A stretch of DNA of 64,000 nt from Anaerolineaceae bacterium. Its GTDB lineage: Bacteria > Chloroflexota > Anaerolineae > Anaerolineales > Anaerolineaceae. The notes beneath the pieces were generated by a model. The model had not been told where the DNA came from, made no database searches, and saw only the letters and a list, made by a program, of their open reading frames with translations. Each line of letters begins with the position of its first letter. Positions within the stretch are counted from its first letter, which is position 1. The stretch covers positions 19,759 through 83,758 of the forward strand of contig DAIOEK010000007.1 in the NCBI GenBank assembly GCA_036746315.1, given 5' to 3'. Shown piece by piece: positions 6,969 to 27,944 of this stretch. A program made the position numbers and the translations under genes.

Positions 6969-6971
6969 GTT

Positions 6972-9895: not shown

Positions 9896-9913
9896 TAACC
9901 ACCAGGAGAGAAG

Positions 9914-10087: not shown

Positions 10088-10141
10088 GCTGGGTATGGGG
10101 GTTATGGTTGGCGTTTCGAGAACGCCGGAAAGAAGGGAGCG

Positions 10142-10939: not shown

Positions 10940-11030
10940 GAGCAATACTGATTTGGATTTAATAAAAATGGAGGTGTCAAGATGTTTAACTTAATGTTAT
11001 CGACTCGCGCCGGGGTGGGCGTCGAGCATC

Positions 11031-11639
11031 ATGGCAGACGGGGTGAATATCACCCGCCGTCGCAGAAAGCGATCGATTATGGATGCTGGAACGATTTTAA
11101 ACGCACTATCCCAGCGGCAAACTGGGACAGGCACGAACACGGCGGGAAACTTTCGACAAACTTATTATAACGAAAATTTCCAAAATTACAATCCTGAAAT
11201 ACTTCCGCACGATAACGCCGCTGAGCAGGCAGTCATAGGTGCGGTCCTCATCCTGGGGGCGATCCCACAGGGTCTAAGCCTACGCCCGGATTACTTTTAC
11301 CGGGAGCAACACCGCATAGTTTGGCATTGCTTAGAAATGCTGAGCGCGCGCGGTGAGACTATTGACATTCTCAGCGTACAAAGAGAGCTGGCGAGGATGA
11401 AGCGCACCATAGCGCCTTCGTTCTTGACTAGCTGCCTGTTATACAGCAATCCCCCCGCAATAGATCCATTTACCTGGGTTACTCCCCAGGAATACGCGAA
11501 AGAGTGTGCTGATCGCGTTCTGGCAGCTTTCCGGCAACGGCGGCATGCTATTCAGATCGACGCGATTCTGCAAGCGGTGTGGAAGGGTCGGTACACCGAA
11601 GCAATCCGGATGCTGCAGGACATTGTTGGGGGTGCATAA
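11031..11639 (+). CDS. DnaB-helicase N-terminal-domain protein (start uncertain)
   Basis: LPHDNAAEQAVIGAVLILGAIPQG...FYREQHRIVWHCLEMLSARGETIDILSVQRELAR matches the DnaB N-terminal domain pattern (P.. .EAE..vlG..l...F....h..if....l...g.piD). There is no ATPase domain in this ORF. Confidence 0.65.
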   Translation: MADGVNITRRRRKRSIMDAGTILNALSQRQTGTGTNTAGNFRQTYYNENFQNYNPEILPHDNAAEQAVIGAVLILGAIPQGLSLRPDYFYREQHRIVWHCLEMLSARGETIDILSVQRELARMKRTIAPSFLTSCLLYSNPPAIDPFTWVTPQEYAKECADRVLAAFRQRRHAIQIDAILQAVWKGRYTEAIRMLQDIVGGA

Positions 11640-12685
11640 TGGCAGATACATGGAAACTATACACCCTGGAAGATGCTTTCAAACCACGCCCGCCCGCTGA
11701 GTACGCGGTAGCAAACCTAATCCGGCTGCCCTCACTAGGTATGTTTTATGGTCCCCCAGGCTGCTTAAAATCCATGCTTCTGGCAGATATGGCAGTCTGC
11801 ATTTCCGGGGGTATTGATTGGCTGCAACCAGCTGCATGGCAGCCGGGATCAAAACCGCGCACGGTGCTGCCATGCCCGGTCCTATGGCTTGACCTGGATA
11901 ATGGCAAAGACACCACAGAAGACCGTTTTAAGGCACTTGCAACCGGTCACAAGGTAGATCCAGGCGCCGCCCTGTTCTATTACACCATGCCATCACCCTG
12001 GCCACGTCTGATTGATGAAGCACAAGCAAACGAGCTGAAAGACCGCATATTCCTAACCCAGGCAAGAGTAGTGATCATCGACAACCTGGCAAGAGTATCT
12101 GCGGGCGTGGACGAAAACACGCGCCAGATGGACGACGTTATGAATAACTTGCGGCAAATATCAGAAGCAACCAGAACCGCCATAATCTTGATACACCATA
12201 GCAGCAAAGACCGGGGAACCGGGGGAAGAGCAGGGGACAGACTGCGCGGACATTCAAGCATTGAAGCTGCCCTGGATCTGGCTATCAGCGTAGAACGGGA
12301 AGAGTACAGCAGCAAAATCAACCTGATCACAACTAAGAGCCGTCATGGCGAAATACCACCATTCGCGGCTGAATGGACCTACAAAAAAGAAGCAGATGAT
12401 ACTCTGATCGAGGGTGCATTCTACGGTCTGGCAGCGGATGACGATAAATCAGATCACGCACTTGACCGCGTTATTTTATCCAGCGTAGATGGTACATGGA
12501 CCAATAAAACCAATTTGCGGAAATTAGTCAAAGAAGAACTGCCCGACATAGGCAATCACCGCATCGAGAGCCGGATATCTTTCCTGGCAGCTGCAGGAAA
12601 ACTGGCAGAGAAACCAGGCAATATAACCAATGAGAAGCTATACCGTCATCCGTCTTCCGGCGTCTTCCAATCGTCTTCCGGATGA
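11639..12685 (+). CDS. RecA-fold replicative ATPase (AAA_25/RepA-like), putative element replicase
   Basis: The ATG overlaps the upstream stop (TAATG). Walker A-like GPPGCLKS, Walker B VVIIDNLARV, and IILIHHSSKD are present. Confidence 0.6.
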   Translation: MADTWKLYTLEDAFKPRPPAEYAVANLIRLPSLGMFYGPPGCLKSMLLADMAVCISGGIDWLQPAAWQPGSKPRTVLPCPVLWLDLDNGKDTTEDRFKALATGHKVDPGAALFYYTMPSPWPRLIDEAQANELKDRIFLTQARVVIIDNLARVSAGVDENTRQMDDVMNNLRQISEATRTAIILIHHSSKDRGTGGRAGDRLRGHSSIEAALDLAISVEREEYSSKINLITTKSRHGEIPPFAAEWTYKKEADDTLIEGAFYGLAADDDKSDHALDRVILSSVDGTWTNKTNLRKLVKEELPDIGNHRIESRISFLAAAGKLAEKPGNITNEKLYRHPSSGVFQSSSG

Positions 12686-12731
12686 CAACCGAAACCGTCA
12701 TCCGTCTTCCCCCCCTTTTAAGGGGAAGACG
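12643..12731. repeat. Iteron cluster (CGTCTTCC x4 direct + 1 inverted) with an embedded hairpin; candidate replication origin
   Basis: cgtcttcc occurs at 12651, 12661, 12672 and 12703, and the inverted ggaagacg at 12724. ccgtcatc occurs at 12643 and 12695. The stem ccgtcttcccc/ggggaagacgg spans 12702-12732. Confidence 0.5.
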
Positions 12732-12769
12732 GTGGACGACGAAATCAGAGAACTTAGGGAGTGTGGATC

Positions 12770-12979
12770 ATGGGAAAAATGAGCTATTTACCTATCAAAG
12801 AAAAGGGCTTGTATCCTCTAGAAATAGTACAGGGGATTCACCGTCCTCTGTATATTTCAAGCGCTGCAGCGGCGTTCAGGCGGGTTATTCGTGCTTGGTG
12901 GGAGCGTACAACGCCGGGGATCTGCCACTATAACGAGCTGCTAATCTCAGAGTCCTCTGTACTTTGGGGGCAGGAATGA
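12770..12979 (+). CDS. Hypothetical small protein (element)
   Basis: ORF with a GGGAG RBS upstream. No recognisable motif. Confidence 0.3.
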   Translation: MGKMSYLPIKEKGLYPLEIVQGIHRPLYISSAAAAFRRVIRAWWERTTPGICHYNELLISESSVLWGQE

Positions 12980-13386
12980 CAGCGAAAGTAACCAAAGCAT
13001 GCGGGGCAGAAGCAGCGGTCCGGGCGTTATCCAGGGGTGAACCGTTTACCGGGTTGGCTGCCCGTGAACTGTGCGAGGTGATCCAGACGTTCGAGGATGA
13101 AGGGCGTCTGGAGATCATGAAGCATAACGCATATCGGGGGCAGGCGACGGCAAATCTATTCTGGCAGGCAATCCAGAAGGCAGCGGACGAAGGCGACTTG
13201 CAGCGGCTAGATGAATATGTCAAGCGGTTTGGCTGGCTGCTGGGTGTGGTGACGCGGTTATGGCAGGCTGAAGCGATAGAAGAGAAGGCGGCTAAGGGCA
13301 ACAGTACTGAGGTCGATGCAATCCTGGCAGAATACAGGGACGCTGATACAGCAGAAGGGACGGGCGAAGATGCACCAAATAATTAA
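12976..13386 (+). CDS. Hypothetical protein; its position immediately upstream of the TerL-like gene would fit a small terminase subunit
   Basis: 136 aa, helical and charged. The 3' end overlaps the next gene's start. The assignment rests on synteny only. Confidence 0.3.
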   Translation: MTAKVTKACGAEAAVRALSRGEPFTGLAARELCEVIQTFEDEGRLEIMKHNAYRGQATANLFWQAIQKAADEGDLQRLDEYVKRFGWLLGVVTRLWQAEAIEEKAAKGNSTEVDAILAEYRDADTAEGTGEDAPNN

Positions 13387-15037
13387 CTTTGCCAAAGGTG
13401 AGCTGGGAATAAAGCTGCACCCAGGGCAGGCACGGGAATTGTCTGCCTACTATGAGAGCGGGCTGCCTGATTGGTTGAACCTATCCGGGCGGCGGTCGGG
13501 TAAGTCTTTGCTTGCGGACGTGATCGCGTGTTATGAAGCGTTGGTCCCGGATTTCAGCGCGTATATCAGACCGGAAGAGCCGCGCCATATCATCATTGTT
13601 GCGAACCGGTTAGATAATGCCAGGCTGCATATCGACAATATCAGCAAGATGTTATCCCGGCGGTTCAAGTCTAAGATCACGAATGTTACCCAGGACAGGA
13701 TCGAGCTATCCAACGGGGCGGTAATCCTGTGCTTGCCGGCAAGCGCACGGGCAGGGCGCGGGTACACCGCAAGCTGCGTGATATTTGATGAGCTGGCACA
13801 TTTCGTCGATAGTGACGGAAATCAGAGCGCGGACGCGGTTTACAATGCGTTTTCGCCGACTGTGGCAACGTTCGGGGACGCGGCGCGGATTGTGATAACC
13901 ACGACGCCATTTACACGAACCGGGATTGTATTCTCGCTATTTGACCGGATAAACAGCGGTGAACTGGCAGATCAGATCTATTTGACGCATTGTACCACCC
14001 AGGAAATGAATCCGAAGGTCGGGGAAGGTACCATAAAGCGGGCGTTGAAACGGGATGAGGAATCAGCGCGGACAGAATACTTTGCAGAATTTCGCGACCC
14101 GTTGGAAGCGTTCCTTAATCCGCTTGCGATTGACCGGGCGGTCGATGAACACCTGGCAGAGCTTCACCATGCAGAGCCGGGCAAGCAGTACATTATGGCG
14201 ATTGACCCGGCGATCATGCGGGATAACTTTGCTTTTGCGGTGATGCACACAGAGAAGGGCGTGCATATTGTGGACATGGTCCGCGCACTTAAGGCGCCGG
14301 TGGACCCGAACGAAGCGGAAGATTTACTCTTCCTGCTGAATAAGAATTTTCACCCGTTGAGAATCCTTTGCGATAATCCCAGCCTGGTACAGCGATTACG
14401 CAGCAAGCTGCCGAACCTGGAATACAAACCATTCACCCGACCGATGAAACTTGAAATCTATGGCAGCCTGAAAGAAGCGATCAACCTCGAAAACTTCCAG
14501 ATGTATAAGCAGCAGGACGCCATAGATGAACTGAAGGCGCTGCAGATCCGCAACGGGGTTGATATCGCGGCACCAAAAAGCGGCCGGATTACACACGACG
14601 ACCTGTGCGACGTCCTGGCATTGTGTGTCAATGGCTTGGTAAAACGGGCTGGGGTTGGTGAAGTGGAATATGCACCAAATTTTATTTTCGGTACTGTGGC
14701 GGGGCAAGAAACTTATGAAGATTGGTTATGGCGTAAGCAGAACACCGCCGAACACCCGCCGGGTGTCACCTGGCAGAACTGTAAGAACCGTCACCGGGGT
14801 TGCGACGCATGCGAACGGGAAACCGCGCACATGGTGGACCCTGAGACGGGGATCTGGATCGGGGACAATCAGCCGGTTGACGTCCCGGATGGCGCGCATG
14901 TTTCTGTCATTGATGGGGACCTGCTAACCAGCCTAATTACAAGAAACATAGAAAGGGAATACAACAAAGAAATTAGAGATCAAAAAATCCTAGACTTATT
15001 TTACAAAGGTGCAAACTTGCACCGGAAAGGCTACTAA
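13370..15037 (+). CDS. Phage terminase large subunit-like protein
   Basis: Walker A-like LSGRRSGKS, Walker B CVIFDELAHF, ITTTP coupling-like motif, and C-terminal acidic residues (AIDPA..., THDDLCDV) consistent with the RNaseH-like nuclease. Confidence 0.55.
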   Translation: MHQIINFAKGELGIKLHPGQARELSAYYESGLPDWLNLSGRRSGKSLLADVIACYEALVPDFSAYIRPEEPRHIIIVANRLDNARLHIDNISKMLSRRFKSKITNVTQDRIELSNGAVILCLPASARAGRGYTASCVIFDELAHFVDSDGNQSADAVYNAFSPTVATFGDAARIVITTTPFTRTGIVFSLFDRINSGELADQIYLTHCTTQEMNPKVGEGTIKRALKRDEESARTEYFAEFRDPLEAFLNPLAIDRAVDEHLAELHHAEPGKQYIMAIDPAIMRDNFAFAVMHTEKGVHIVDMVRALKAPVDPNEAEDLLFLLNKNFHPLRILCDNPSLVQRLRSKLPNLEYKPFTRPMKLEIYGSLKEAINLENFQMYKQQDAIDELKALQIRNGVDIAAPKSGRITHDDLCDVLALCVNGLVKRAGVGEVEYAPNFIFGTVAGQETYEDWLWRKQNTAEHPPGVTWQNCKNRHRGCDACERETAHMVDPETGIWIGDNQPVDVPDGAHVSVIDGDLLTSLITRNIEREYNKEIRDQKILDLFYKGANLHRKGY

Positions 15038-15039
15038 TT

Positions 15040-15762
15040 ATGACCGCATGGATAGATCAACTAATTAGCATTAGAGCGTTAAGAGAAGAACTGGCAAAGT
15101 ATGGCGGGATGATGGACCCTTATGCCCGTTCGGTAATTACCCGTGAAATAGCATCGAAAGTGGACGCGGTAAGACCAGCGGCAGTTAATGGCGCATTAGC
15201 AGACTGGCGCGGTACGATCCAGAAATACCAGGATGCCCGGGCAAAATTCGAGCAGGCACGGCAAAAAGAAGCGGACAGCTACGACGCCGGAAAACTGGCA
15301 GGGGAAATCAACCTGCTACAGACCATGATCGGGCTGAATAGCAAGCAGGCATCCCCATTCAAGAAGCAGCCGGATGGACTGCAGAAAATCTACCAGGACG
15401 CGGCGAACAGCGCGGATAAACACCGCAGACGTGCCGCGGCTGAGCTATTTGCAGCGATGGACGGCGGCAAAGACCTAGCGATGGTCGAATTGGTCCGCAA
15501 GGCAAAAAACGACCTGGCAACCATGCTTGACACGCCGGAAGTGAAGCAGGCAGCGCAAGGGGTCATTGATGGATTGAATGAACTGGAAAGCTGCAGGGAA
15601 TACGTCACGAATGTTGCCGATATTCTGGGCGAAAGCAGGGATCAGATATTTGTACACGGTGCTTTACGTGAAGAATTAAACAGGGTCCGTGTTATGCCCG
15701 ATGGAAACGTGGAAATCAAAGAGGTTAATAATGGACGATCAATGGCAGAAACTCAAAACTAA
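15040..15762 (+). CDS. Hypothetical helical protein (element)
   Basis: 240-aa ORF starting 3 nt after the TerL-like stop. No motif recognised. Confidence 0.4.
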   Translation: MTAWIDQLISIRALREELAKYGGMMDPYARSVITREIASKVDAVRPAAVNGALADWRGTIQKYQDARAKFEQARQKEADSYDAGKLAGEINLLQTMIGLNSKQASPFKKQPDGLQKIYQDAANSADKHRRRAAAELFAAMDGGKDLAMVELVRKAKNDLATMLDTPEVKQAAQGVIDGLNELESCREYVTNVADILGESRDQIFVHGALREELNRVRVMPDGNVEIKEVNNGRSMAETQN

Positions 15763-15988
15763 GAAGCCGAAATTCCAGACACCTGCCTGGGTGAAAACAA
15801 TCAGCGGGTTGGCTTCCATTTATTCACGGCAAAACCATCGGGACGAGATCAAAATACCCGATACCAAACAAAGCGCGCCTTATGAGGATAATAATACCCG
15901 CTGGTATAACTTCCTGCGCAAGCATGGTTATTCTGAGGAAGAAATCGACGCGGTGAAAAGTCGACGGGAAAAACCATTATTCGGGTAA
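15731..15988 (+). CDS. Hypothetical small protein (element)
   Basis: ORF MDDQWQKLKTKKPKF... overlapping the previous gene's end. Confidence 0.3.
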   Translation: MDDQWQKLKTKKPKFQTPAWVKTISGLASIYSRQNHRDEIKIPDTKQSAPYEDNNTRWYNFLRKHGYSEEEIDAVKSRREKPLFG

Positions 15989-16186
15989 AAAAATAATGGC
16001 AGGTATTGACAACCGGCGTATAATAGATATAGAACGATCCTGGCAAGTGCGAGAACACCTGCCAGGACCTAACCAAAACGCCGGGATAAGCGGCGAATGG
16101 CTAACCTGATTATATCATAGCAGCCACCTTAAACCGCTTGTCCATTCAGACAGGCGGTTTGTGTTTAACCAAAAGGAGGCTATGCA

Positions 16187-16465
16187 ATGAGTAACAAGGT
16201 TCTAGATCGGGAACTGGTAGAGCCGATGGTATCGGTAGAATTTATCGAGAATATCATCTGCTGCTGGGGCGGGGATTGTCTCACCTCTGCCCTGGAAGAT
16301 CGACCGCAAGAACAGCGGTTATTAAATTCCATTGTGCTGGGGTACATGGTACAGATCAACGCGCTGCAGAATGGCGGCAAGGTTGAGAAGTGCCTGGCAG
16401 AATGGATCAAGGACGAAATGCCCGAAGCGATCAACACCATGAGCGCGCTGGGCTTTCAATGGTGA
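16187..16465 (+). CDS. Hypothetical protein (element)
   Basis: AAGGAGG RBS 7 nt upstream of the ATG. 92 aa. Confidence 0.45.
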   Translation: MSNKVLDRELVEPMVSVEFIENIICCWGGDCLTSALEDRPQEQRLLNSIVLGYMVQINALQNGGKVEKCLAEWIKDEMPEAINTMSALGFQW

Positions 16466-16481
16466 GGGGAAGGAGCAGAAA

Positions 16482-16682
16482 ATGGCTGAGCATAATCCTT
16501 GTGAATCGGTTGCCAGGAAGATGATCCGGGTATATGACGAGATCACCAATATCACCGAAAAGATAAACATCCTCACGGAAGAGATCGAAGAACTGGAAGA
16601 AGAGAAAAGCGTCCATGAGCTGCAATTCGAGCAATTAGGGCATTTACTGATATCTTTTGACGAAGAAGAAGGGAAAATGTAA
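16482..16682 (+). CDS. Hypothetical coiled-coil small protein (element)
   Basis: 66 aa with an acidic heptad-like stretch, ITEKINILTEEIEELEEEK. Confidence 0.35.
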   Translation: MAEHNPCESVARKMIRVYDEITNITEKINILTEEIEELEEEKSVHELQFEQLGHLLISFDEEEGKM

Positions 16683-16802
16683 TGACAAAATCAAAAAATG
16701 ATGTACAATGGATTATAGGTAAAGCATTTTAATTGCAAAAGCGTACACGGCATATATGGCGGTGACGACATGGCAGGGGCAGCATATACGGGGGTAGAAT
16801 CA

Positions 16803-16878
16803 TGGCGCCCCAGGAGAGACTCGAACTCTCAACCATCGGATTAGAAGTCCGGTGCTCTATCCATTGAGCTACTGGGGC
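16803..16878 (-). tRNA. tRNA-Arg (anticodon TCT), CCA encoded
   Basis: The reverse complement GCCCCAGTAGCTCAATGGATAGAGCACCGGACTTCTAATCCGATGGTTGAGAGTTCGAGTCTCTCCTGGGGCGCCA folds as a cloverleaf. Acceptor GCCCCAG/CTGGGGC, anticodon stem CCGGA/TCCGA with loop CTTCTAA, T-arm GAGAG-TTCGAGT-CTCTC. Confidence 0.9.
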
Positions 16879-16894
16879 AATGGCAACAATCTTA

Positions 16895-17329
16895 TCACAA
16901 ATTCGTGGGGCGAATGCCCATAAAGATCCGTGAACCGGAGAGCAGCCGTAGAATGGTATCCCCCGGCTTGCCGATCATGGCGCCCAACTCTTCGGCGTTG
17001 AGCGGGGTATTTCCGTTGGAGAGGAAGATGCGGAAGACGTTATCCACCACGCTATGGTTCTCCTCCACAAAGCCTTCCAGTCGGGAGCAATGCAGCATGA
17101 GCTTTTGCTGAATACCATCCACCTGGTGTACTTCCGCTGTGATGGGGTCGATGTGGTCGATCAATTCCCCTTCCGCGGCCGAGGCAAAAAGCTGGCGGTG
17201 TTCGGGGCAAAGGTAATCCAGCAGGAAAACCCGCCAGTTGTTGTCATGTTCTTTCCACCAGTCGAAATCGATGTGGAAGGGGGTATTGAGGGTTGGTTTT
17301 ACAAGAGAAAATTGAGGCTTGTTTTCCAT
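16895..17329 (-). CDS. Hypothetical protein
   Basis: 144-aa ORF whose start codon directly abuts the upstream gene's stop codon. No motif recognised. Confidence 0.5.
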   Translation of the reverse strand: MENKPQFSLVKPTLNTPFHIDFDWWKEHDNNWRVFLLDYLCPEHRQLFASAAEGELIDHIDPITAEVHQVDGIQQKLMLHCSRLEGFVEENHSVVDNVFRIFLSNGNTPLNAEELGAMIGKPGDTILRLLSGSRIFMGIRPTNL

Positions 17330-18913
17330 CTATGTCTCCTGCATGCCCGTATCAGCCAGTCGATAGTAAAGGTCACCGACGTGTTTGAATGCCGGTGAAT
17401 TCACCAGTACAGAGAAGACAATTTCAGGCGTGCAGCGACGATAGATATTGGCTGCAGCATAAAGTTCCTGGGCGTGGACATGTCCCTGTGGGTTTAGTTT
17501 GGTTAGTTCCTGAGCGCATTGAATGATGATGTTTTCCCAATGGGGGCGTTTTGCTTTTTGGGCTTCCCAGTATTTATCCAGGTTGGCAACGTCGGGTACC
17601 ACGGTTGCCATACGTTCGTCATAGGTGGTGTTTACCTGTTGTTTCAGTAAAGCAAATACAATCCCTCCGTCTGCGCCGACCAAGATGGTGCGCAGCCATT
17701 CCTTGCTCTTTTTTTTCTCGACGTTGATCACCACCTCACCCCGGGCATTGGCTTTATGGATGGTAATGATGCTGCCGGGGAGGACGCCATTTTGTGCGTA
17801 CCATTCTTCCAGACCGACAACGTACCGATTGGGGCGCACCACCCATCCGGGAATCTGGGTCTGGGTTTCCGCATCGATAAATGAGAACTGGATGCGGGGG
17901 GATTCCAGTGCGGTGGGGAAGAGCTTTCGGGTGCGGCTGGATAGTGGCAGTGAACCAGCCCGCCAGTGTGGGTATGTCAGCACAACTTCCACCTGTTCCT
18001 TTTTTTCGTATTCAAAACAGGCGGTGCAGTATTCGTCATCCAGCGCTTTCTCGAGATCAGAAAGCTGCGGGGTAAAGTTCTCCCGGTTCACTTCCTGTGG
18101 CTGGAATTGCAAGTTAAGCGGCGTCTGGCGGACGTTTTCAGGTTCCAGGCGTTCCAGGTACCAGAGCACATCCCCCGAAGCGCCCACTTCGTCAAAGCGC
18201 GGGTCCTCCTGCAGAGCGAGGTTGAGCGAAAACTCGGTGAGTTTTTCGTTGACGCCCGGCGGAAGGTCCAACTGTTCCATGAGCTGATTGGTGGAAAGAG
18301 GCACACCGGCAGCCATATCCAACACTGCTTCGGCGAGATTCAGCTGACCGATGTTGATATCCACGAACAGGGCACGCGGGAACCATGCACCGGTGATGAG
18401 GGCGAGGTTCGGGTCGGAAGCCAGTAATTCTTCCAGTGCAATTTCCAGTTTTTCACCGTAGGATTCCAGTATCTGATCCAGTTGCGAGTCCTGCGGTTCT
18501 TCCGTGACTGCCGGGGTGTTCAGTTCGTGGTCTTCCAGATCCAACGCAAAACTGCGGATATCGTTTTTGTCGAATTCAACTTCCATAACTTTAAAGGACG
18601 CGACTTCAGGATTCTTGCCATCCCGTACTGATTTCACCTTGCCCTGTGACCAGCCAAGCGCGGGGAATTGAACCTGCTCACCCGGTTCGTAATGGTCTTT
18701 GGGTAAATATACCCGTCCATTTTTCAATTGTTTCTGTTGAAAGGATTTCTTTTCCTGCTCAAGCCTGTTTTGAATCACGGCTTTGAGGAGTTCCTGCGTT
18801 GTCTGGGGGGTTTCTAGTTCGAATAGGTGATTGTTGATAAAATCCAGGTCATTCTGTGAAAACTGATACTCTTCCCATTGTTCTGCCTGGAGTAATGCTG
18901 GGGCACCTGTCAT
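17330..18913 (-). CDS. Hypothetical protein (527 aa)
   Basis: Long ORF with normal composition. All overlapping antisense ORFs are shorter and compositionally skewed. No motif recognised. Confidence 0.55.
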   Translation of the reverse strand: MTGAPALLQAEQWEEYQFSQNDLDFINNHLFELETPQTTQELLKAVIQNRLEQEKKSFQQKQLKNGRVYLPKDHYEPGEQVQFPALGWSQGKVKSVRDGKNPEVASFKVMEVEFDKNDIRSFALDLEDHELNTPAVTEEPQDSQLDQILESYGEKLEIALEELLASDPNLALITGAWFPRALFVDINIGQLNLAEAVLDMAAGVPLSTNQLMEQLDLPPGVNEKLTEFSLNLALQEDPRFDEVGASGDVLWYLERLEPENVRQTPLNLQFQPQEVNRENFTPQLSDLEKALDDEYCTACFEYEKKEQVEVVLTYPHWRAGSLPLSSRTRKLFPTALESPRIQFSFIDAETQTQIPGWVVRPNRYVVGLEEWYAQNGVLPGSIITIHKANARGEVVINVEKKKSKEWLRTILVGADGGIVFALLKQQVNTTYDERMATVVPDVANLDKYWEAQKAKRPHWENIIIQCAQELTKLNPQGHVHAQELYAAANIYRRCTPEIVFSVLVNSPAFKHVGDLYYRLADTGMQET

Positions 18914-19095
18914 ACCTTGCCTCTTCTTCTGATTTAAAAATAGCCCTGTAATTATACCTTAGGGTTAATCGCAGCACAAGAAAAAGCGAAGAACGAAGAA
19001 AGTCATAAGAATCCCGGTATGACAGGTGACGGAAGTCCGCCGACACGGCTGCCCTGGAAGATATATAATATATTCAAATACCCACGGAGAGGACA

Positions 19096-19611
19096 ATGTA
19101 CCCAAAAGACGCAAAGCAACCCAATTATCGCGGCATCACCGTCGTTGCTGAAGCCAGCTCAATTGAGAAGTGGCGCAAGCAGGTGATTGCCGGACAACCG
19201 GAGACCGGCAGGTCTTACGCGTTGATCAGTGATGAGGGCTCGTACATGCCGGGCGGGGAAGGCACCGCCCCCACGCCGCTCACCTACTTCGTTTCAGGGA
19301 TGGCACTCTGACTGATCTCTCACGTTTCGCAGGTTGCGAAAAAAAAGAAGTTATCCATCCAAAACGAACATGTGATAGTGACGGCTCATTTTCATGAGCA
19401 TGGTTCCGTGCTGAAAGGCGATGCAGAAGGTTTTTGCGATGGCTTCGACATAGAGATCAAACTCGATACCGAAGAGGATGACGACATCATCGCCACGCTA
19501 ATCCGGGTGGCGCGCAAGATGTGCTTTACCGAAAAAGTGCTGACCGGTTCGGTGCCCGTGCATGTAACGCAGACCATCAACCAACAGCCGTTCGTCATCG
19601 ACGAGGCATAA
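19096..19611 (+). CDS. OsmC/Ohr-family peroxiredoxin-like protein with an in-frame TGA at 19309-19311 (candidate selenocysteine; alternatively a pseudogene)
   Basis: ORFs 19096-19311 and 19372-19611 are in the same frame. The joined read is ...GGEGTAPTPLTYFVSGMAL[TGA]LISHVSQVA...RVARKMCFTEKVL. The TGA sits where OsmC/Ohr proteins carry the first conserved Cys, and the second conserved Cys is retained. Confidence 0.55.
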
Positions 19612-19633: not shown

Positions 19634-19662
19634 AAAACCACCGCTTTTTGAGCGGTGGTTTT
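19634..19662. terminator. Bidirectional intrinsic terminator hairpin between convergent genes
   Basis: aaaaccaccgc-tttttga-gcggtggtttt, with A-run and T-run flanks. Confidence 0.7.
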
Positions 19663-19682
19663 GATATTCCTGCGGGTTCGGA

Positions 19683-20408
19683 TTATACCAGAACCTCTTC
19701 GGGAACGCGCATCACTTCGTTCGCCTTGACAACGGAATCGGGGACGTTGAAGTCCAGTTCCGTACCGGTCATCTGGCGGACGTAGTTCTTGACGACCTTG
19801 TCCCAGTATTTCTTGGTGACGTAGTAAACGCGGGCGCCACCCAGTTCGTGCTGGTATTCAGGCCACGGGTAAGAAGGCTGAGCCATACCGAGACCCCAGC
19901 GCATCCAACCGTTGTAGCTTTCGTAGGTTGCCCACCATTCCTTGTTGCCCAGCATCTCGAAGCCGTAGTAGGCTTTGGCGTAGTACATGACTGCGCCAAT
20001 GCGTCCACCGCGGACCAGCGCCATGGTGTGGAGGCTGATGTTGATGTCTTCGCTGACCAGGCGGCCATTGGCGAAGCCAGCCCACAACCCATCGATCAAA
20101 CCGACGAGGGTGTAAGGGTCCTTGAGGCGTTTGCGGTACCAACCCAGAATTTCAGCGTACACACGGGCACCCACGATATCGTAGAAGTCGTGGTCGGCTT
20201 CCATGACGCGCTTCATGTAATCCATCATCATGGGGGCTTCTTCCATTTTGGCTTCGCGGATATACAGGGTGCGACCGTCTTTCAATTTCACCATGGCGCC
20301 CGGCCAGGGTTTGAGGTCCATGGCAGGAGCCTGGAGCAGGGGTTCGATCTCGCGAACGTCGATCGTCAGTTGCTCTTCAGATACTTTCTCGGGGGGTTCA
20401 ATTCTCAC
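19683..20408 (-). CDS. Conserved hypothetical protein (possibly acyltransferase-fold), last gene of the decarboxylase cluster
   Basis: 241-aa ORF, 48 nt downstream of the cyclase gene on the same strand. No confident motif. Confidence 0.45.
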   Translation of the reverse strand: MRIEPPEKVSEEQLTIDVREIEPLLQAPAMDLKPWPGAMVKLKDGRTLYIREAKMEEAPMMMDYMKRVMEADHDFYDIVGARVYAEILGWYRKRLKDPYTLVGLIDGLWAGFANGRLVSEDINISLHTMALVRGGRIGAVMYYAKAYYGFEMLGNKEWWATYESYNGWMRWGLGMAQPSYPWPEYQHELGGARVYYVTKKYWDKVVKNYVRQMTGTELDFNVPDSVVKANEVMRVPEEVLV

Positions 20409-20456
20409 AGCAAGTCTCCTTTAAATAAAGTTAGATAAGAATAATTTTTCGCACGA

Positions 20457-21329
20457 CTAGATTTTGGACAGCTTGTTTAACCGCTCCACATGGGTCGGGT
20501 CGTACGCATCACCGAATTTGGTCTTGGGCATGGTTGCAGCCTTGGCCATCAGTTTGTCATAGTCATCATCTTCCACGAAGGCAACTGCACGACCGATGGA
20601 GGATTCGCCCTCGACGAAGCGCCAGGGGAAGAAGCCGACTTTAACGCGGCGGTTCAGCAGCAGGTCGATTTGACCGCCGAAGCATTCGGCATGGATGATG
20701 GATTCGGGGAAGAGGTCGATGTGCATCAATTGATATTTCTCATCATCGAACACTTCTTCCAGGGTCTTGTTGTACATCTTCTTGAATACTTTTTGTGCCT
20801 GGGCTGCCTGGCGGGGCATCCAGGTGCGGATGATGGTGTTCATGGGATGGTCAGCAGATCCGCAATCAACAGCGATCCAGCGTAGTTTCTTTTTCTTAGC
20901 CCAATCCGCGAATTCCTGTCCTGGACCCGGATGTTTCACCATGTAGCGGACTTCATCCGCGGTGGGGTGATCCCATCCGAAATGATGGTAACCGGTATGG
21001 ATGACGAGAATATCGCCTTCTTTAACTTCGACACGGTCTTCGATCATTTTGCTGGTGTACACCTGGTAATCACCGACAGCATCGGTCAGGTCGACAACAG
21101 CTGCATCATGCACAAGGTAATCCATGTCGAGGTCGGCAATGTCTTTTCCGGCGGTGTAGAAGTGGATTTCACCATCCAGGTGGGTGCCCAGGTGGTTGGA
21201 GTGGGTGAGCAGCTGGCCATTGGCGCCGTTGGGGGCAAGGCGTTTGAAGTACTTAATTTGTAAAGGCTCATAGGTTGGCCAAGCGGGGGTGGCGATGCCT
21301 AAAGGGATGGTTAGATCGATTAGTTTCAT
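20457..21329 (-). CDS. Putative cyclase / kynurenine-formamidase-like metal hydrolase
   Basis: THSNHLGTHLDGEIHF matches the HxGTHxDxPxH-type motif of the 'putative cyclase' family. Confidence 0.65.
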   Translation of the reverse strand: MKLIDLTIPLGIATPAWPTYEPLQIKYFKRLAPNGANGQLLTHSNHLGTHLDGEIHFYTAGKDIADLDMDYLVHDAAVVDLTDAVGDYQVYTSKMIEDRVEVKEGDILVIHTGYHHFGWDHPTADEVRYMVKHPGPGQEFADWAKKKKLRWIAVDCGSADHPMNTIIRTWMPRQAAQAQKVFKKMYNKTLEEVFDDEKYQLMHIDLFPESIIHAECFGGQIDLLLNRRVKVGFFPWRFVEGESSIGRAVAFVEDDDYDKLMAKAATMPKTKFGDAYDPTHVERLNKLSKI

Positions 21330-21432
21330 GGTTATTCTCCTTTTGTATGTATAAATACTTACTGGATGTTACCTGAACTTTAATTTATAAAATCGAAGCT
21401 AATAATTTCATCAGCTTCGATTAATTATAAGA

Positions 21433-22557
21433 CTAAACTCCACCTACAAGAAATGCGAGTAGAAGCCCTCCGGCTACAACGCTGCCGAGCTGACCCGCAA
21501 CATTCGCACCCATTGCATGCATGAGGAGGAAGTTGCTGGGATCCGCTTCCTGTCCAACCCGCTGAACTACACGGGCTGCCATTGGGAATGCGCTAATTCC
21601 AGCAGACCCAATGAGGGGGTTGAATTTCTTGCCTGATAGAACGTAGAGCAGCTTCGCAAAAAGTACACCACCAGCCATATCAAAAACGAATGCCAGTAAT
21701 CCAAGACCGATAACACCGAATGTTTCCACACGGACAAAGCTTTCTGCCTGCATTGAGACACCGATGCACAAGCCAAGTAATAGAGTTGTGATATTGGCAA
21801 TTTCGTTTTCTGCGGCACTTGCCAGGCGATCGACAACACCGCTCTCGCGTAACAAGTTACCAAACATAATTGTTGAGATCAAAGCGGAAGCTGCCGGTGC
21901 AATGAGAGAAACAACAACCGAAGCCGCGATCGGGAAGATAATTCTGACAGTTTTTGATACTTTCCGCTCAGAATAGGGCATATGAGTGGCACGTTCTGCC
22001 TTGGTTGTTAACAGCTTCATTACTGGAGGCTGGATGATGGGAACCAGCGACATATAACTATATGCCGCAACAGCAATTGGCGCGAGGAACCTCGGAGAGA
22101 GGGTTTTTGCAACAACAATTGATGTCGGTCCATCCATAGTGCCGATTGCTGCGATGGCGCCAGCGTCTTTAATCTCATATCCGAGGAAGAGGGCAACCAT
22201 CAGGGTTACGAAGATACCGATGTGACCAGATGCTCCCAGGAAAACCATTTTTGGGTTTTCATACAAGGGACCAAAATCGCACATTGCGCCCACCCCGATG
22301 AATAGGAGCAGAGGCAAAAGTTCTGTATCTATGCCCGCTTTGTAGATGATGGTAATGAACCCATGTTCACCGAAAATCTCAGTTAAGGGCAGGTTGGTGA
22401 TGATAGCCCCAAAACCGATAGGCAGGAGTAGTACGGGTTCATACTCTTTTACAATGGCCAGATAGATCAGAATTGCTCCAATAACAATCATTACCAATTC
22501 TTGCCAGGTAAACATGCTGGGAGCTTCTATGAGGAAATACAATTTGGATAGGTCCAT
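21433..22557 (-). CDS. Na+-transporting decarboxylase beta subunit (OadB/MmdB/GcdB family)
   Basis: 374-aa polytopic membrane protein. Its sequence is characteristic of the family, and the adjacent biotin carrier, OadG-like and carboxyltransferase genes support the call. Confidence 0.85.
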   Translation of the reverse strand: MDLSKLYFLIEAPSMFTWQELVMIVIGAILIYLAIVKEYEPVLLLPIGFGAIITNLPLTEIFGEHGFITIIYKAGIDTELLPLLLFIGVGAMCDFGPLYENPKMVFLGASGHIGIFVTLMVALFLGYEIKDAGAIAAIGTMDGPTSIVVAKTLSPRFLAPIAVAAYSYMSLVPIIQPPVMKLLTTKAERATHMPYSERKVSKTVRIIFPIAASVVVSLIAPAASALISTIMFGNLLRESGVVDRLASAAENEIANITTLLLGLCIGVSMQAESFVRVETFGVIGLGLLAFVFDMAGGVLFAKLLYVLSGKKFNPLIGSAGISAFPMAARVVQRVGQEADPSNFLLMHAMGANVAGQLGSVVAGGLLLAFLVGGV

Positions 22558-22567
22558 AGTATACCTC

Positions 22568-23011
22568 TTAGTCGATCTGGACCAGAATTTCGTTGAATTT
22601 TACCTTTTGCCCAGCTACAACACTCACACCAGAAACCACGCCATCTTTTGGACTGCGAATAGCGTTTCTCATCTTCATTGCTTCGAGGCTGACAACTTCC
22701 TGTCCTTTTGTTACGCTATCGCCTACTTTTACCAGTACATCCAGAATAGTACCGGGCATGGGTGCGATCACTTCATTACCGGAACCAGATGGTGCAACCG
22801 GAGCAGCAGCGCGAACAACAGGAGCAGCAGCTGGCTTTGCCGATACTGCCGGGCGATCAGCTTTTACTGCTGGTTTGGGCATCGAGACCGAAGCGGGCAT
22901 TTCAACCGAGTATTTGACACCATCGACGATAACATCTACTAATGATCCGGTAGTATCGCCAACTTCAACCTCATATTTTTTTCCATTTACGATCAAGTTT
23001 TGTTTTGTCAT
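22568..23011 (-). CDS. Biotin carboxyl carrier subunit (decarboxylase gamma-type)
   Basis: Ala/Pro linker followed by the biotinylation motif VVSLEAMKMRNAI. Confidence 0.85.
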   Translation of the reverse strand: MTKQNLIVNGKKYEVEVGDTTGSLVDVIVDGVKYSVEMPASVSMPKPAVKADRPAVSAKPAAAPVVRAAAPVAPSGSGNEVIAPMPGTILDVLVKVGDSVTKGQEVVSLEAMKMRNAIRSPKDGVVSGVSVVAGQKVKFNEILVQID

Positions 23012-23026
23012 TTGACCACCTGAATC

Positions 23027-23350
23027 TTATTTTTTTCTTCTATTATGGGCAGTAATCAGTCTTGAACTCCACCAGGCGCTACGATTTTCTTGTAGACTCT
23101 CCCCCAATCCTTCATATGGTTGGGTTTGCGCCAATTGAAGAGCAACTGCTATTGCTGCCACGATTGAATTATCGTCAGAGGGTGTTACTTTCACAGGAGC
23201 AATCTCCTGTTCCTCTTTTTCTTCTTTTTGCGACTTATCAGGGAAGATTGCCTGCAACCCGACAAGCAGGAAATAGAAAATTGCGCAGACTATAAACAGG
23301 ACTATAATCCCGACCACACTGATGTACAGTCCCTGTTGAATTGGATTCAA
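23027..23350 (-). CDS. OadG-like small membrane subunit of the Na+-pumping decarboxylase
   Basis: 107 aa with an N-terminal TM (GLYISVVGIIVLFIVCAIFYFLLVGL) followed by a charged tail. Its position between the alpha and biotin-carrier genes fits. Confidence 0.65.
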   Translation of the reverse strand: MNPIQQGLYISVVGIIVLFIVCAIFYFLLVGLQAIFPDKSQKEEKEEQEIAPVKVTPSDDNSIVAAIAVALQLAQTQPYEGLGESLQENRSAWWSSRLITAHNRRKK

Positions 23351-23377
23351 TTTACACCTCCTCTTAAGCTAATTATT

Positions 23378-24934
23378 TTACAGCGGGATACTGCCGTGTT
23401 TTCTAGAGGGCAGGGTAGCTTGCTTATCCTTCAACAATTCCAGGGCTGCGATCAGGCGTTGGCGGGTTTCAGAGGGTAGAATCACATCATCAATATGTCC
23501 TGCTGAGGCGGCTGCGTATGGATTTGCGAACTTGTCTCGGTATTCCTGAACCAGGCGAGCCCGTTCTTCATCTGGATTGGCAGCTTCTTTTAGTTCTTTG
23601 CGTTTAAGAATATTAACCGCACCTTCAGCACCCATGACAGCGATTTCAGAGGATGGCCAAGCGTAAACCAGGTCAGCGCGCAGGTATTTTGATCCCATCA
23701 CGATCATGGCGCCACCATAGCCCTTACGGGTGATGACTGTAATCTTGGGAACAGATGCTTCTGCATAAGCGTATAGAATTTTCGCGCCATGCCGAATAAT
23801 TCCACCATGTTCCTGTGCAACTCCGGGCAGGAAGCCGGGTGAGTCACTGAATGTAACAATGGGCAGATTGAATGCATCGCAGAACCGTACAAAGCGGGCG
23901 ATTTTGTCTGAAGCATTGATGTCGATGGAGCCAGCCATAACAGCGGGTTGCTGGCAAACTACACCAACAGACTGACCATGCAGACGGGCAAAACCGATGA
24001 TTGCGTTCTGGGCGAATGCTGCTGACACTTCATAAAAGCTATCCAGATCAAATACACGGGAAATGACATCGTGCATATCGAAAGAAGTGCTTGGATCAGC
24101 CGGGACGATGGTGTTCAGTTCAGGATCGGCGCGGTTGGGGTCATCGTCACTTGCATAGGAAGGTCCAGCTTCAGTATTGTTGGAGGGGATGTAGGATAGG
24201 ATCTTCCGGATCGCATCGAATGCATCCTGCTCACTATCCACTGCGAAGTGTGCCACACCACTAATTGAGCTGTGCGCATCTGCACCACCCAACTGTTCAC
24301 TATCAATCTCTTCACCGGTAACGGCTTTAATAACCTGAGGACCAGTGATGTACATATTTCCCATACCACGGACCATGATAATAAAGTCTTGAATGGCGGG
24401 TGAATAAACTGCACCACCGGCGCAGGGTCCCATGATGACACTAATTTGAGGAATGACACCTGATGACTGAACGTTGCGGTAGAAGACTTCACCGTAAGCT
24501 TCCAGACTCCAGATACCTTCTTGAATCCGGGCGCCGCCACCATCATTAATGCCGATGACGGGAATACCAGCAGTTGCTGCCAAATCCATAACTTTAGAGA
24601 TCTTTTTGCCAGCAACTTCGCCGAATGACCCACCCATAACGGTGAAATCCTGGGCATAAACACAAACGCGGCGGCCGTCGATTTTTCCGAAACCAGCCAC
24701 CACGCCATCGCCCAAATATCGATCCTTATCCAGGTCAAAATCGGTGAAGCGGTGCTCCATGAAGGGTTCAACTTCCTGGAAGGATCCGGCATCGAGCATC
24801 TGCGTAATCCTTTCGCGAGCAGTCATTTTCCCTTTTTCATGCTGAGCGTCGATGCGCTTCTGCCCGCCGCCTTCAGCGAGTTTGGCACGCATCTCTTTCA
24901 ATTTCTTGATCATGTCTTCTGAGGACGATCCCAT
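23378..24934 (-). CDS. Acyl-CoA carboxyltransferase (methylmalonyl-CoA decarboxylase alpha / PccB-like)
   Basis: MTARERI..LLD.GSF.E...DGVVAGFGKIDGRRVCVYAQDFTVMGGS... is the typical carboxyl_trans domain. The start was moved to MGSSSED because GGAGG lies within the longer ORF, 8 nt upstream. Confidence 0.9.
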   Translation of the reverse strand: MGSSSEDMIKKLKEMRAKLAEGGGQKRIDAQHEKGKMTARERITQMLDAGSFQEVEPFMEHRFTDFDLDKDRYLGDGVVAGFGKIDGRRVCVYAQDFTVMGGSFGEVAGKKISKVMDLAATAGIPVIGINDGGGARIQEGIWSLEAYGEVFYRNVQSSGVIPQISVIMGPCAGGAVYSPAIQDFIIMVRGMGNMYITGPQVIKAVTGEEIDSEQLGGADAHSSISGVAHFAVDSEQDAFDAIRKILSYIPSNNTEAGPSYASDDDPNRADPELNTIVPADPSTSFDMHDVISRVFDLDSFYEVSAAFAQNAIIGFARLHGQSVGVVCQQPAVMAGSIDINASDKIARFVRFCDAFNLPIVTFSDSPGFLPGVAQEHGGIIRHGAKILYAYAEASVPKITVITRKGYGGAMIVMGSKYLRADLVYAWPSSEIAVMGAEGAVNILKRKELKEAANPDEERARLVQEYRDKFANPYAAASAGHIDDVILPSETRQRLIAALELLKDKQATLPSRKHGSIPL

Positions 24935-25088
24935 ATAATGAACCTCCATTTAGTTAGTAATTACTTTTAGTCTATCCAATTTGCTGCTGACAAATCAAGT
25001 GATAGTGTTCAGCTACCCTGCTGATATTGTCATGATTTATTAAGAAGAGTGTACCGGGCTAAGCCGATACACTCTCACTACTCGAAAC

Positions 25089-27443
25089 TTAAATCTTGCC
25101 TGCTTCTTCCATTGCCAGATAAATCTTTTCTGCTGATAACGGAGGATTGGAAACGCGGACACCGACGGCATCATAGATGGCATTTGCCAAAACGCCAATC
25201 GTCGGGGTCATGGGGTGTTCGCCGATACCGCGGGCGCCCCAGGGTCCGTCATCCTGTGCTGTTTCTACAAAGATGGCTTTGTTTACCTTGGGCAGGTCTG
25301 CGGTGGTTGCAATACGGTAATCCACAAAACTGGGGTTCTTCATTACCCCGTTGACCAGCTTCATCTCTTCGAAGATGGCTGAGCTCATACCCTGGATGAA
25401 ACCGCCTTCGATCTGGGCTCGCACCAGATCGGGGTTGATGGCTTTACCGACATCGAATGCGGAAACCGCCTTGAGGATCTCGATCTGCCCGGTGAGGGTG
25501 TCGATCTCCAGGTCGATGCCCTGGCAGCCGGTGGTGTAATGGACGACAGCACGCTCACCCTGACCGGTATCCTTGTCCAGCCCGGTGACGTAGGTGGGCA
25601 TGAAGCTGCCGCGTCCCAGGATGGGACCGCCGATCCAGCCCTTGTCGTCTTCGCGGGAAATGCCGTATACCACCATATTCTTCAGCGGGATGGTGTTTTC
25701 GGATTTGAGCGAGATGACCACACCTTCTTTGATATCCAGATCAGCCGGGTTTTCATTCCAGGCTTCGCCGACCAGCTCGAGGATGTTCTTACGCGCGTCT
25801 TCCGCCGCGCGGCGCACCGCATTCCCCATGCTCCAGGTGAGGCGGGAGGCAACCGTCTGCCACTCGTAGGGGCTGTAGCGGGTATCCACCGGACCTTCGA
25901 TCTTGACCATTTCGTAGGAAACGCCCAACGCCTCGGCAGCGATCTGCGCCATGGCGGTGAAAGTACCCTGTCCGATCTCCTGTCCGCCCACGGAAACGGT
26001 TACGGAACCGTCTTCATTCAAACGGACTTCAGAACTGGAACCGGCATTCGGGGGCATGGAGGGAGCTTTCCAAACAATGCCGATGCCCTTGCCGCGTTTC
26101 TTATGGGGAGCACTGGCGGGTTCCTGCACGCCAATCTTGATCTCTTTCGAAACCACATCGATGCATTCCTGCAAACCCACCGGGTGCATCTTCATGCCGG
26201 TAACGTTGAAATCACCGCCCTGGATGGCATTCTTCTTCAGGAATTCGCTCTTGCTCATGCCGATCTTTTCGGCCAGCATGTCCATGACCTGGATGATGCC
26301 CGCATGCAATTCGGACATACCGAAGCCGCGATAGGCACCGCCGATGGGGTGGTTGGTGTAGATGCACATGGCGTCGGTCTTGACGTTGGGGATATCGAAC
26401 GGACCGGATGAGTTGTAGCCGCCGGCGCGGGTGATATTTACACCATATTCCGTGGAGGCGCCGCCATCCCAGTATTGGGTGTTTTCCATGGCGAGCACGT
26501 TGCCCTGGGCATCGCATCCGATCTTGAGGTTGATGATCAAGCCCTGACGGACGAAATTGGTGAAGAACTCTTCCTCGCGGGTGAGGCGGACTTTCACCGG
26601 TCTGCCGCCAGCTTTGGATGCCAGCGCAACGGCGACATTTTCCATCGTCACTCCGGCTTTGCAGCCGAAACCGCCGCCCACGTAGGGGGCGATCACGCGG
26701 ACTTTGCTTTCAGAGATGTCCAGTGCCTTGGCGAATGAATTCCGCTGCGCAAAGGGTGATTGGGATGACGCCCACACGGTTACATCGCCATCCGATTCAA
26801 CCTGCGCCACGGCGATATGCGGTTCGATGGGCACGTGCTGAACGTGCGGGATGCGGAATTTCTTTTCAATGATGGTGGTGCATTTCTTGAAGCCTTCTTC
26901 CACGTTCCCCTTGCGGATCTTGAAGTGGTTGGCGATGTTTGTGCCTGGGATGGGGAAGATGAAATTGGGGCACTCATAGTTGCCCAGATCGGGGTGGAGC
27001 AGCGGGGCGTCTTTGGATGCGCCGAATTCCGCATCAAATACCGCCGGCAGCGGATCGATATCCACTTCGATCAGGTCGATCGCTTTTTCGGCGATCTCTT
27101 CAGATGTGGCAGCCACGGCAGCGATCGCTTCTCCAATGAAGCGTACGCGGTCGATGGCAAAAATGGTCTTGTCTTTCAGGTACAGACCTACCAGGTTGGG
27201 AAAGTCTTTACCGGTAACGACAACTTTCACACCGGGCAGCGCTTGGGCTTTGGAAATATCTATCCGCTTGATAACGCCATGCGCCACCGGGCTTCTTTTT
27301 ACCCGACCAAACAAAAGGGCATTGCCGAATGGAATGTCATCTGTATAGTGGGCACTCCCGGTCACTTTTTCTAGCACATCCAAACGTCTTACGCTTTTAC
27401 CGACCGGGCTAAATGTTCCGAGATTTTTATCAGCTTGAGCCAT
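25089..27443 (-). CDS. Molybdopterin-binding large subunit of a xanthine dehydrogenase-family hydroxylase
   Basis: ~784 aa with Ald_Xan_dh_C-type sequence (GGAYRGFGMSE, GGGFGCK). AGGAG RBS upstream of the ATG at 27443. Confidence 0.85.
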   Translation of the reverse strand: MAQADKNLGTFSPVGKSVRRLDVLEKVTGSAHYTDDIPFGNALLFGRVKRSPVAHGVIKRIDISKAQALPGVKVVVTGKDFPNLVGLYLKDKTIFAIDRVRFIGEAIAAVAATSEEIAEKAIDLIEVDIDPLPAVFDAEFGASKDAPLLHPDLGNYECPNFIFPIPGTNIANHFKIRKGNVEEGFKKCTTIIEKKFRIPHVQHVPIEPHIAVAQVESDGDVTVWASSQSPFAQRNSFAKALDISESKVRVIAPYVGGGFGCKAGVTMENVAVALASKAGGRPVKVRLTREEEFFTNFVRQGLIINLKIGCDAQGNVLAMENTQYWDGGASTEYGVNITRAGGYNSSGPFDIPNVKTDAMCIYTNHPIGGAYRGFGMSELHAGIIQVMDMLAEKIGMSKSEFLKKNAIQGGDFNVTGMKMHPVGLQECIDVVSKEIKIGVQEPASAPHKKRGKGIGIVWKAPSMPPNAGSSSEVRLNEDGSVTVSVGGQEIGQGTFTAMAQIAAEALGVSYEMVKIEGPVDTRYSPYEWQTVASRLTWSMGNAVRRAAEDARKNILELVGEAWNENPADLDIKEGVVISLKSENTIPLKNMVVYGISREDDKGWIGGPILGRGSFMPTYVTGLDKDTGQGERAVVHYTTGCQGIDLEIDTLTGQIEILKAVSAFDVGKAINPDLVRAQIEGGFIQGMSSAIFEEMKLVNGVMKNPSFVDYRIATTADLPKVNKAIFVETAQDDGPWGARGIGEHPMTPTIGVLANAIYDAVGVRVSNPPLSAEKIYLAMEEAGKI

Positions 27444-27476
27444 ATGCAGTCTCCTATTCTCCAATCGGATTTGGCA

Positions 27477-27944
27477 TTATGACCGCTTGGCGGCTTCTTG
27501 AACGGATTCGATGATCCGGGAATAACCAGTGCAGCGGCACAAATTACCAACCAGCGCTTCGACAACATCCGCTTCGCTGGGGTTGGGATTGCGGTTAAGT
27601 AACGCGCGAGCTGAGATCAGCATGCCAGGCGTGCAGAAACCGCACTGAACACCGCCTTTTTCGATGATGGTTTCCTGAACGATATCCAGTTTGCCATCTT
27701 TCGCCAGACCTTCCACGGTGACGATGTCTTTACCTTCAGCTTCGACAGCCAGCATCATACAACTGTTCACCGGCTCACCATCCACCAAAACGGTGCAGGC
27801 GCCGCATTCACCGGCAGTGCATCCGTTCTTGGTACCGGTCAGGGAAAGAACTTCGCGCAGCATGGTGAGGAGGGTCATATTGGAGGGAACGGTTATTACT
27901 TCGTTCTCTCCATTCACAGTACAGGTAATTTGATGAAAACTCAT
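27477..27944 (-). CDS. [2Fe-2S]-binding small subunit of the molybdenum hydroxylase
   Basis: The Cys patterns GCTAGECGACTV and CGFCTPG...CRCTGY are present. Confidence 0.9.
   Translation of the reverse strand: MSFHQITCTVNGENEVITVPSNMTLLTMLREVLSLTGTKNGCTAGECGACTVLVDGEPVNSCMMLAVEAEGKDIVTVEGLAKDGKLDIVQETIIEKGGVQCGFCTPGMLISARALLNRNPNPSEADVVEALVGNLCRCTGYSRIIESVQEAAKRS

Follow-up and report, generated by a model that had tools for sequence, protein, structure and literature searches.

Organization of the locus

The window (the whole stretch of 64,000 nucleotides analysed here) carries, at 19096-19611, two open reading frames that belong to a single frame: one of 71 aa at 19096-19311 and one at 19372-19611. 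On re-translation from the ATG at 19096, the frame meets the TGA at 19309-19311 as its sole stop codon before the TAA at 19609-19611, in agreement with the initial annotation, which had described one frame split by nothing but this codon. The read-through product has 171 residues. The TGA stands in the context ...PTPLTYFVSGMAL[TGA]LISHVSQVAKKKK..., and the segment ...ARKMCFTEKVL... is intact further on. The features of the locus are collected in Table 1.

Table 1. Features of the OsmC locus; positions are counted from the first nucleotide of the window.
Feature	Position	Strand	Description and basis
OsmC-related selenoprotein gene (predicted), complete	19096..19611	+	171 residues; Sec = codon 72; TAA stop 19609-19611
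UGA codon 72, predicted Sec, at the peroxidatic (first) Cys position	19309..19311	+	Alignment to 3cje, 3eer, 4noz and Cys-form homologues
SECIS hairpin (predicted)	19325..19341	+	Conserved 6-bp stem, 19326-19331 with 19335-19340; apical loop GGU 19332-19334
Cys114 codon (EGFCDGF)	19435..19437	+	Alignment and translations; extra Cys of the close clade
Cys143 codon (RKMCFTE), second (resolving) Cys position of the OsmC/Ohr fold	19522..19524	+	Alignment
Shine-Dalgarno-like GGAGAGG	19086..19092	+	Just 5' of the ATG; read from the sequence
Promoter-like site CCGACA, 18-nt spacer, TATAAT	19040..19069	+	Consensus scan, 10/12 matches; weak
Intrinsic-terminator-like hairpin and T run	19640..19663	+	Terminator scan; 29 nt past the stop codon

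In the consensus scan, promoter-like sites are about as frequent in this region as in shuffled sequence. The terminator-like hairpin is bidirectional and common to the gene and to a convergent gene at 19683-20408 (minus strand, 241 aa); its position would place the end of the transcript beyond the full read-through frame. The other immediate neighbours, both on the minus strand, are 17330-18913 (527 aa) and 16895-17329 (144 aa). No Pfam match at E ≤ 0.001 was obtained for any of the three. A comparison with two homologous loci (L005 and L007) revealed that the neighbours are not kept across species; hence, the gene context gives no hint of function.

An OsmC-fold protein with the TGA at the first redox position

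For the family searches, the read-through protein was used with a Cys in place of the TGA. It matches the Pfam family OsmC (PF02566) with 44.5 bits, against a gathering threshold of 27.5, over model positions 1-99 of 100. The NCBIfam model NF041052.1 ("OsmC_like_Se", "OsmC-related (seleno)protein") is matched with 123.3 bits (the curated cut-off is 95) over positions 6-143 of 144. Full-length homologues of 161-179 aa, sharing 50-75% identity, were found by protein search. The protein is an OsmC-family member of normal length, as first proposed. The model of the Ohr subfamily, TIGR03561, was not reached (23.4 bits vs. 88.85), nor was the Vibrio Ohr equivalog model (34.4 vs. 240).

In the alignments from a PDB sequence search with the OsmC-like 3cje and two Ohr proteins (3eer and 4noz), the first Cys of all three falls in the TGA column, and their second Cys is matched by Cys143. 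Among the Cys-form homologues, the TGA column is an invariant Cys (C72), and Cys143 is invariant across both homologue alignments (A1 and A3). The alignment with Cys-containing orthologues thus agrees in the U/C column, and the TGA is not displaced from the conserved Cys. Two claims of the initial annotation, that the TGA falls at the first catalytic Cys and that the second one (ARKMCFTEKVL) is intact, are borne out by these alignments.

The nearest solved relative is 3cje, an uncharacterised OsmC-like protein of Jannaschia with 24% identity; its redox motif is CxxT, while the window protein reads U-L-I-S (UxxS). The Glu of the Ohr catalytic triad (NPEQLF) pairs with a Leu in the window protein (TPLTYF). 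Arg12 is invariant, and the Arg of the Ohr triad could not be placed in the alignment. A third, YhfA-type subfamily keeps both Cys without the Arg and Glu and is biochemically uncharacterised (PMC8945050); judging from these residues, the family of the window protein resembles this third branch. With the Ohr subfamily model not reached, the triad Glu missing and the YhfA-like branch uncharacterised, both a peroxidase function and the substrate are uncertain. An additional residue, Cys114 (EGFCDGF), is kept in the close clade, in the Sec and Cys forms alike, and distant Cys-form homologues have EGEAQxF instead. It may serve as a second resolving residue or otherwise participate in the chemistry.

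A structural model was computed with AlphaFold2 from a 72-sequence alignment for the closest natural Cys-form homologue (P0003, 70% identical), with a pLDDT of 87.5 and a pTM of 0.82. This model is structurally closest to 3cje (E 3e-11, TM 0.79), and the next matches include many entries of the Ohr, OsmC and YhfA types. The long helix 62-84 holds the first redox residue, and the second is found where helices 130-143 and 145-150 meet, an arrangement also seen in OsmC and Ohr. The fold is shared with the Ohr/OsmC thiol peroxidases (3eer, 4noz, 1zb8, 1nye), in which the redox residues likewise lie on helix 1 and helix 2. Compared with these enzymes, the window protein would carry a Sec where they have the peroxidatic Cys, and its N-terminus is ~30 residues longer. 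The product is probably dimeric.

Conservation of the TGA and of the downstream frame

A scan of one genome per species yielded 80 loci, nearly all from Anaerolineaceae, Anaerolinea, Bellilinea or Leptolinea MAGs; one locus (L072) is from the cultured Bellilinea caldifistulae GOMI-1, which shares the TGA and the hairpin. Codon 72 was extracted by script, and four loci missed by the pattern (three genome loci and the metagenome contig L003, cut at the TGA) were resolved separately. In the 80 species-representative genomes, the codon is TGA in 71 and TGC or TGT in nine. The predicted Sec form is the rule in Anaerolineaceae, at about 89% of the species representatives.

The protein databases reflect the same situation. 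Full-length homologues with a Cys at the codon-72 column are present, and many fragments end exactly at ...G(M/V/I)AL or begin right after it. Two entries (P0001 and P0002) are called as full-length proteins with a Trp in this column. Their genes give a different product under translation table 11; hence, their codon is TGA as well.

The frame 3' of the TGA is open for 94-101 codons in 70 of 71 TGA forms, a set made up here of 68 genome loci, the window, L005 and L007. Pairwise mismatches at codon positions 1, 2 and 3 amount to 0.28, 0.19 and 0.58 downstream of the TGA and to 0.18, 0.14 and 0.58 upstream of it. The downstream frame thus bears the signature of translated sequence under purifying selection. 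The best species-representative match of the window protein is at 80-82% identity only, which indicates that the window's species is absent from that collection. Near-identical copies of the gene, with 95.6-99.9% nucleotide identity, were found in several independent metagenome samples (L001-L004); samples with near-identical contigs include SRR9674389, SRR9860463, SRR9674393 and SRR9590233.

The hairpin downstream of the TGA

Thirteen nucleotides past the TGA lies a hairpin, TTTCGCA-GGT-TGCGAAA (19325-19341), which forms the core of the predicted minimum-free-energy fold. The surrounding 71-nt stretch folds no better than its shuffles (z = -0.67), and a loose scan of the window returned 15 in-frame TGAs with some hairpin behind them. 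In a single sequence, the hairpin is therefore unremarkable, and its significance rests wholly on the comparison with other genomes. A search against Rfam gave no SECIS match, either in the whole window at gathering thresholds or in 19200-19450 at E ≤ 10.

For the comparison, 70 distinct TGA-form sequences (alignment A2) were used, with positions counted from the T of the TGA. Positions +20 to +26 (CGCAGGT) and +28 to +30 (GCG) are invariant. The four-fold sites +21 and +30 never vary; +12 is randomised (T 21, A 15, G 15, C 19). The three inner pairs of the stem are invariant, and two outer pairs covary: the first is G-C in 57 sequences, U-A in eight and A-U in five, the second U-A in 40, U-G in 24 and A-U in six, and neither pair is broken in any of the 70. 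The covariation score of 0.196 (0.072 in shuffles) was reached by none of 500 shuffles and is above every slid control. The residue following ...QVA varies between K, T, I, A and S, such that pairing is maintained with the S/T codon (first base) and with the V/I/L/M codon before it (wobble base). As read from the alignment, the base-pair compensations are made at the cost of amino-acid changes. In the nine Cys forms, the same stretch is spelled ATC ACC CAG GTG GCC AAC, and the hairpin is abolished.

In the published description of bacterial SECIS elements (PMC1088965), a stem-loop lies shortly 3' of the UGA, and G is among the first nucleotides of its apical loop; the predicted hairpin agrees with this description. 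Its interpretation as a bacterial SECIS, put forward in the initial annotation, is supported by the covariation, the frozen synonymous sites and the loss of the structure in the Cys forms. The same annotation counted seven base pairs. The position, the sequence and the 13-nt spacing are as it gave them, but the conserved stem has six pairs: the seventh, U-A (19325-19341), exists in the window and in only 24 of the 70 distinct TGA-form sequences.

The SECIS of E. coli fdhF likewise lies in coding sequence directly 3' of the UGA, and its apex, GCAGGU, is identical. The GGU is found at +22-24 in fdhF and at +24-26 in the window hairpin, i.e., 2 nt further from the UGA. The apical loop consists of three nucleotides, GGU, closed by an A-U pair in the window, against GGUC in fdhF. 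The 6-bp stem of the window also differs from fdhF in showing no evident bulged U, and the lower stem is not conserved.

Selenocysteine machinery

No tRNA-Sec was detected in the 64-kb window, and SelA, SelB and SelD are missing among its 40 Pfam-annotated ORFs. The window and 88 homologue loci (~0.97 Mb) were also searched with ARAGORN and, using SelA, SelB and SelD of E. coli as queries, with tblastn; neither search returned anything, which implies that the sel genes are unlinked to the OsmC gene. SelB has been reported in Anaerolineales single-cell genomes and in Anaerolinea thermophila UNI-1 (PMC4959059), and the Chloroflexi have been counted among the selenoprotein-containing phyla (PMC1794560). 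A study on the selenoproteomes of methanogenic communities (PMC11025550) names neither OsmC nor Anaerolineae. We infer the capacity of the organism to decode Sec from the conservation pattern together with this literature; a TGA and a hairpin conserved in this way would be inexplicable in a lineage without Sec decoding.

Alternative readings of the TGA

The locus very probably represents one functional gene for an OsmC-fold redox protein in which codon 72 is recoded as selenocysteine. The initial annotation had kept a pseudogene as the alternative, that is, a dead or dying gene in which a Cys codon (TGC or TGT) has mutated to TGA. Such a change takes a single base, and two of the TGA-form homologues do contain one frameshift each within the gene (L080, ~6071-6099; L087, ~6354-6386). 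Both copies come from long-read MAGs, where single-base indel errors of the assembly could plausibly account for the frameshifts; the other possibility is that the gene is truly decaying in these lineages. The identical TGA is present in 71 of 80 species. The codons behind it are open in all TGA forms but one and diverge mostly at third positions, the downstream catalytic Cys143 is invariant, and the covarying hairpin goes with the TGA and is gone in the Cys forms. By this comparative evidence, a pseudogene is very improbable and effectively excluded. A gene inherited as a selenoprotein gene by an organism that has since lost Sec decoding, with translation ending at codon 72, is improbable too. 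The sel genes and tRNA-Sec were indeed not found in the window, but a 64-kb stretch out of a genome of several megabases would be expected to miss four or five genes that are unlinked. Moreover, the window copy is intact, with an open frame, all of the invariant residues and a terminator past the full ORF; its hairpin is perfect and has even an extra base pair, and the near-identical copies come from independent metagenome samples.

Almost no credence can be given to the UGA being read as a standard amino acid (e.g., Trp, as in genetic codes 4 or 25), or to two separate genes, the second one starting from the GTG at 19372. Some public automatic gene calls do put a W in this place (P0001 and P0002). 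However, TGA is an ordinary stop in this DNA, ending 15 of the 56 long ORFs of the window, and several of these TGA-ending ORFs give full-length domain matches (e.g., GcvPA and sigma-70). The column is a Cys in all non-TGA homologues, at a catalytic position. As for two genes, the 20 codons between the TGA and the GTG at 19372 are conserved as protein and lie inside the OsmC domain, and neither half alone is predicted to form the OsmC fold.

Proposed mechanism

In the selenoprotein reading, a ribosome arriving at UGA72 would meet the GGU-loop hairpin (stem 19326-19340) 14 nt downstream, bound by SelB with GTP and Sec-tRNA(Sec). SelB would then deliver Sec at UGA72 in place of termination. This recoding step is deduced from the anatomy of the locus and from the E. 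coli paradigm.

In the folded protein, Sec72 would be located on the long first helix, at the peroxidatic Cys site of Ohr/OsmC, and Cys143, on the second helix, at the resolving site. The selenolate of Sec72 may attack a hydroperoxide or another oxidised substrate. The resulting selenenic acid would be resolved by Cys143 to a selenenylsulfide, which could be re-reduced by a cellular thiol or lipoyl system. A related thiol-selenol exchange is an alternative to such a peroxidase cycle. These catalytic roles of Sec72 and Cys143 are assigned by position only. To our knowledge, there is no experimental demonstration of Sec in any OsmC-like protein.

Other features of the window

Two further places in the window resemble a TGA-interrupted gene. 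An ORF of 137 aa is followed in frame by a TGA and an ORF of 860 aa (4386-7385, minus strand), which mimics a 1000-codon interrupted ORF. It consists of an HSP20 gene (6972-7385, minus strand) that ends in TGA and of a Lon protease gene (4386-6968, minus strand), in the same frame, whose ATG comes one codon later. The other place is a TGA at 10085 with a 9-bp hairpin behind it. Here, a small ribbon-helix-helix-like gene ends; the hairpin is intergenic, and a ribosome-binding site and the ATG of the next gene come after it. Both candidates are adjacent ordinary genes, and no other selenoprotein gene was identified in the window.

An integrative element of 8,070 bp (8732-16849) is bounded at each end by a perfect 48-bp direct repeat, at 8732-8779 and at 16802-16849; the latter copy is the 3' part of a tRNA-Arg(TCT) gene (16803-16878, minus strand). 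Besides a tyrosine integrase (8815-9762) and a small ribbon-helix-helix-like protein, the element codes for a secreted Laminin_G_3 protein (10142-10939), an AAA_25 protein (11579-12685) and a protein similar to terminase large subunits (13316-15037). Where the AAA_25 gene ends, still within the element, 12630-12710 holds two 29-nt direct repeats 52 nt apart (ATGAGAAGCTATACCGTCATCCGTCTTCC; the second copy is 86% identical), which could be iterons or duplicated gene starts. In two metagenome contigs from other samples (L002 and L003), the element is missing, and position 8779 is joined straight to 16802, with 98-99.9% identity. From its gene content, it looks like a small phage-like or satellite-like island that is polymorphic in the population.

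The similarity to a Leptolinea MAG contig (L009) changes sharply along the window. The genes downstream of the OsmC gene (19683-25562) share 93.5% nucleotide identity with this contig, against only ~78% at 16797-18984 and 4846-7471. For the OsmC gene itself, no blastn alignment to the contig was obtained at E ≤ 1e-20, though the proteins are 80% identical. The break coincides with the OsmC gene and its terminator and may mark the edge of a recombined or transferred segment.

A glycine riboswitch (RF00504, 51.8 bits; 36773-36865, minus strand) precedes gcvH (36248-36640), gcvPA (34894-36291) and gcvPB (33438-34943), which is the textbook arrangement of a glycine-cleavage operon (33438-36865, minus strand). 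The window also encodes, on the minus strand, a three-subunit molybdenum hydroxylase of the xanthine dehydrogenase family, with MoCoBD (25089-27464), 2Fe-2S (27477-27944) and FAD (27967-28857) subunits, adjoined by an AllH-like gene (29155-30027). Some molybdenum hydroxylases of this family use a labile selenium cofactor.

Comparison with known OsmC-like selenoproteins

OsmC-like selenoproteins were predicted in 2005 from the Sargasso Sea metagenome, as a family with a UxxT motif assigned to COG1765 (Zhang, Fomenko and Gladyshev; PMC1088965). The initial annotation correctly referred to predictions of such proteins in marine metagenome surveys. As far as can be compared by the published description, the two groups are alike in belonging to the OsmC superfamily (PF02566; COG1765 for the published family), in having a predicted Sec at the first redox Cys and in a downstream predicted SECIS with an apical G. 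They differ in that the Sargasso Sea family is marine and UxxT, and the window protein is UxxS and from Anaerolineaceae. OsmC-like selenoproteins are also listed in current reviews (PMC9312934 and PMC13188914).

How familiar these proteins are had been understated: a curated model, NF041052, exists, and the window protein passes it. The name of this model already allows for Sec, and Anaerolineales homologues bear it in NCBI records (P0062). The window protein is a further member of this family, with no difference of substance. The OsmC gene has therefore been identified correctly, as a genuine and ordinary selenoprotein gene of a kind already known. No new question is opened by it, as catalogues have included OsmC-like selenoproteins with their SECIS elements since 2005 and the family model is curated. 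The present results go modestly beyond this catalogue, in that the Sec form is the rule in Anaerolineaceae and the covariation record of its SECIS is unusually clean.

For annotation, the value is practical. Standard gene callers split the gene in two (Logan, JGI, ENA) or mistranslate the TGA as Trp; when the fragments are joined, a single intact redox enzyme is obtained. For a bacterial SECIS that lies within coding sequence, the set of 80 species is, moreover, an unusually clean natural experiment: synonymous sites are frozen, amino-acid replacements maintain the pairing, and the hairpin is lost wherever Sec has reverted to Cys.

More tentatively, the Sec-containing OsmC-related protein could be the main selenoprotein of the class, and in some members the only one, and the identity of its SECIS apex with that of fdhF could mean that the recognition code of SelB is conserved between Chloroflexota and Proteobacteria; both are conceivable, and we would not count on either. 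If the protein were indeed the main or only selenoprotein, this would explain why SelB has been reported in organisms without an annotated selenoenzyme, such as Anaerolinea thermophila UNI-1.
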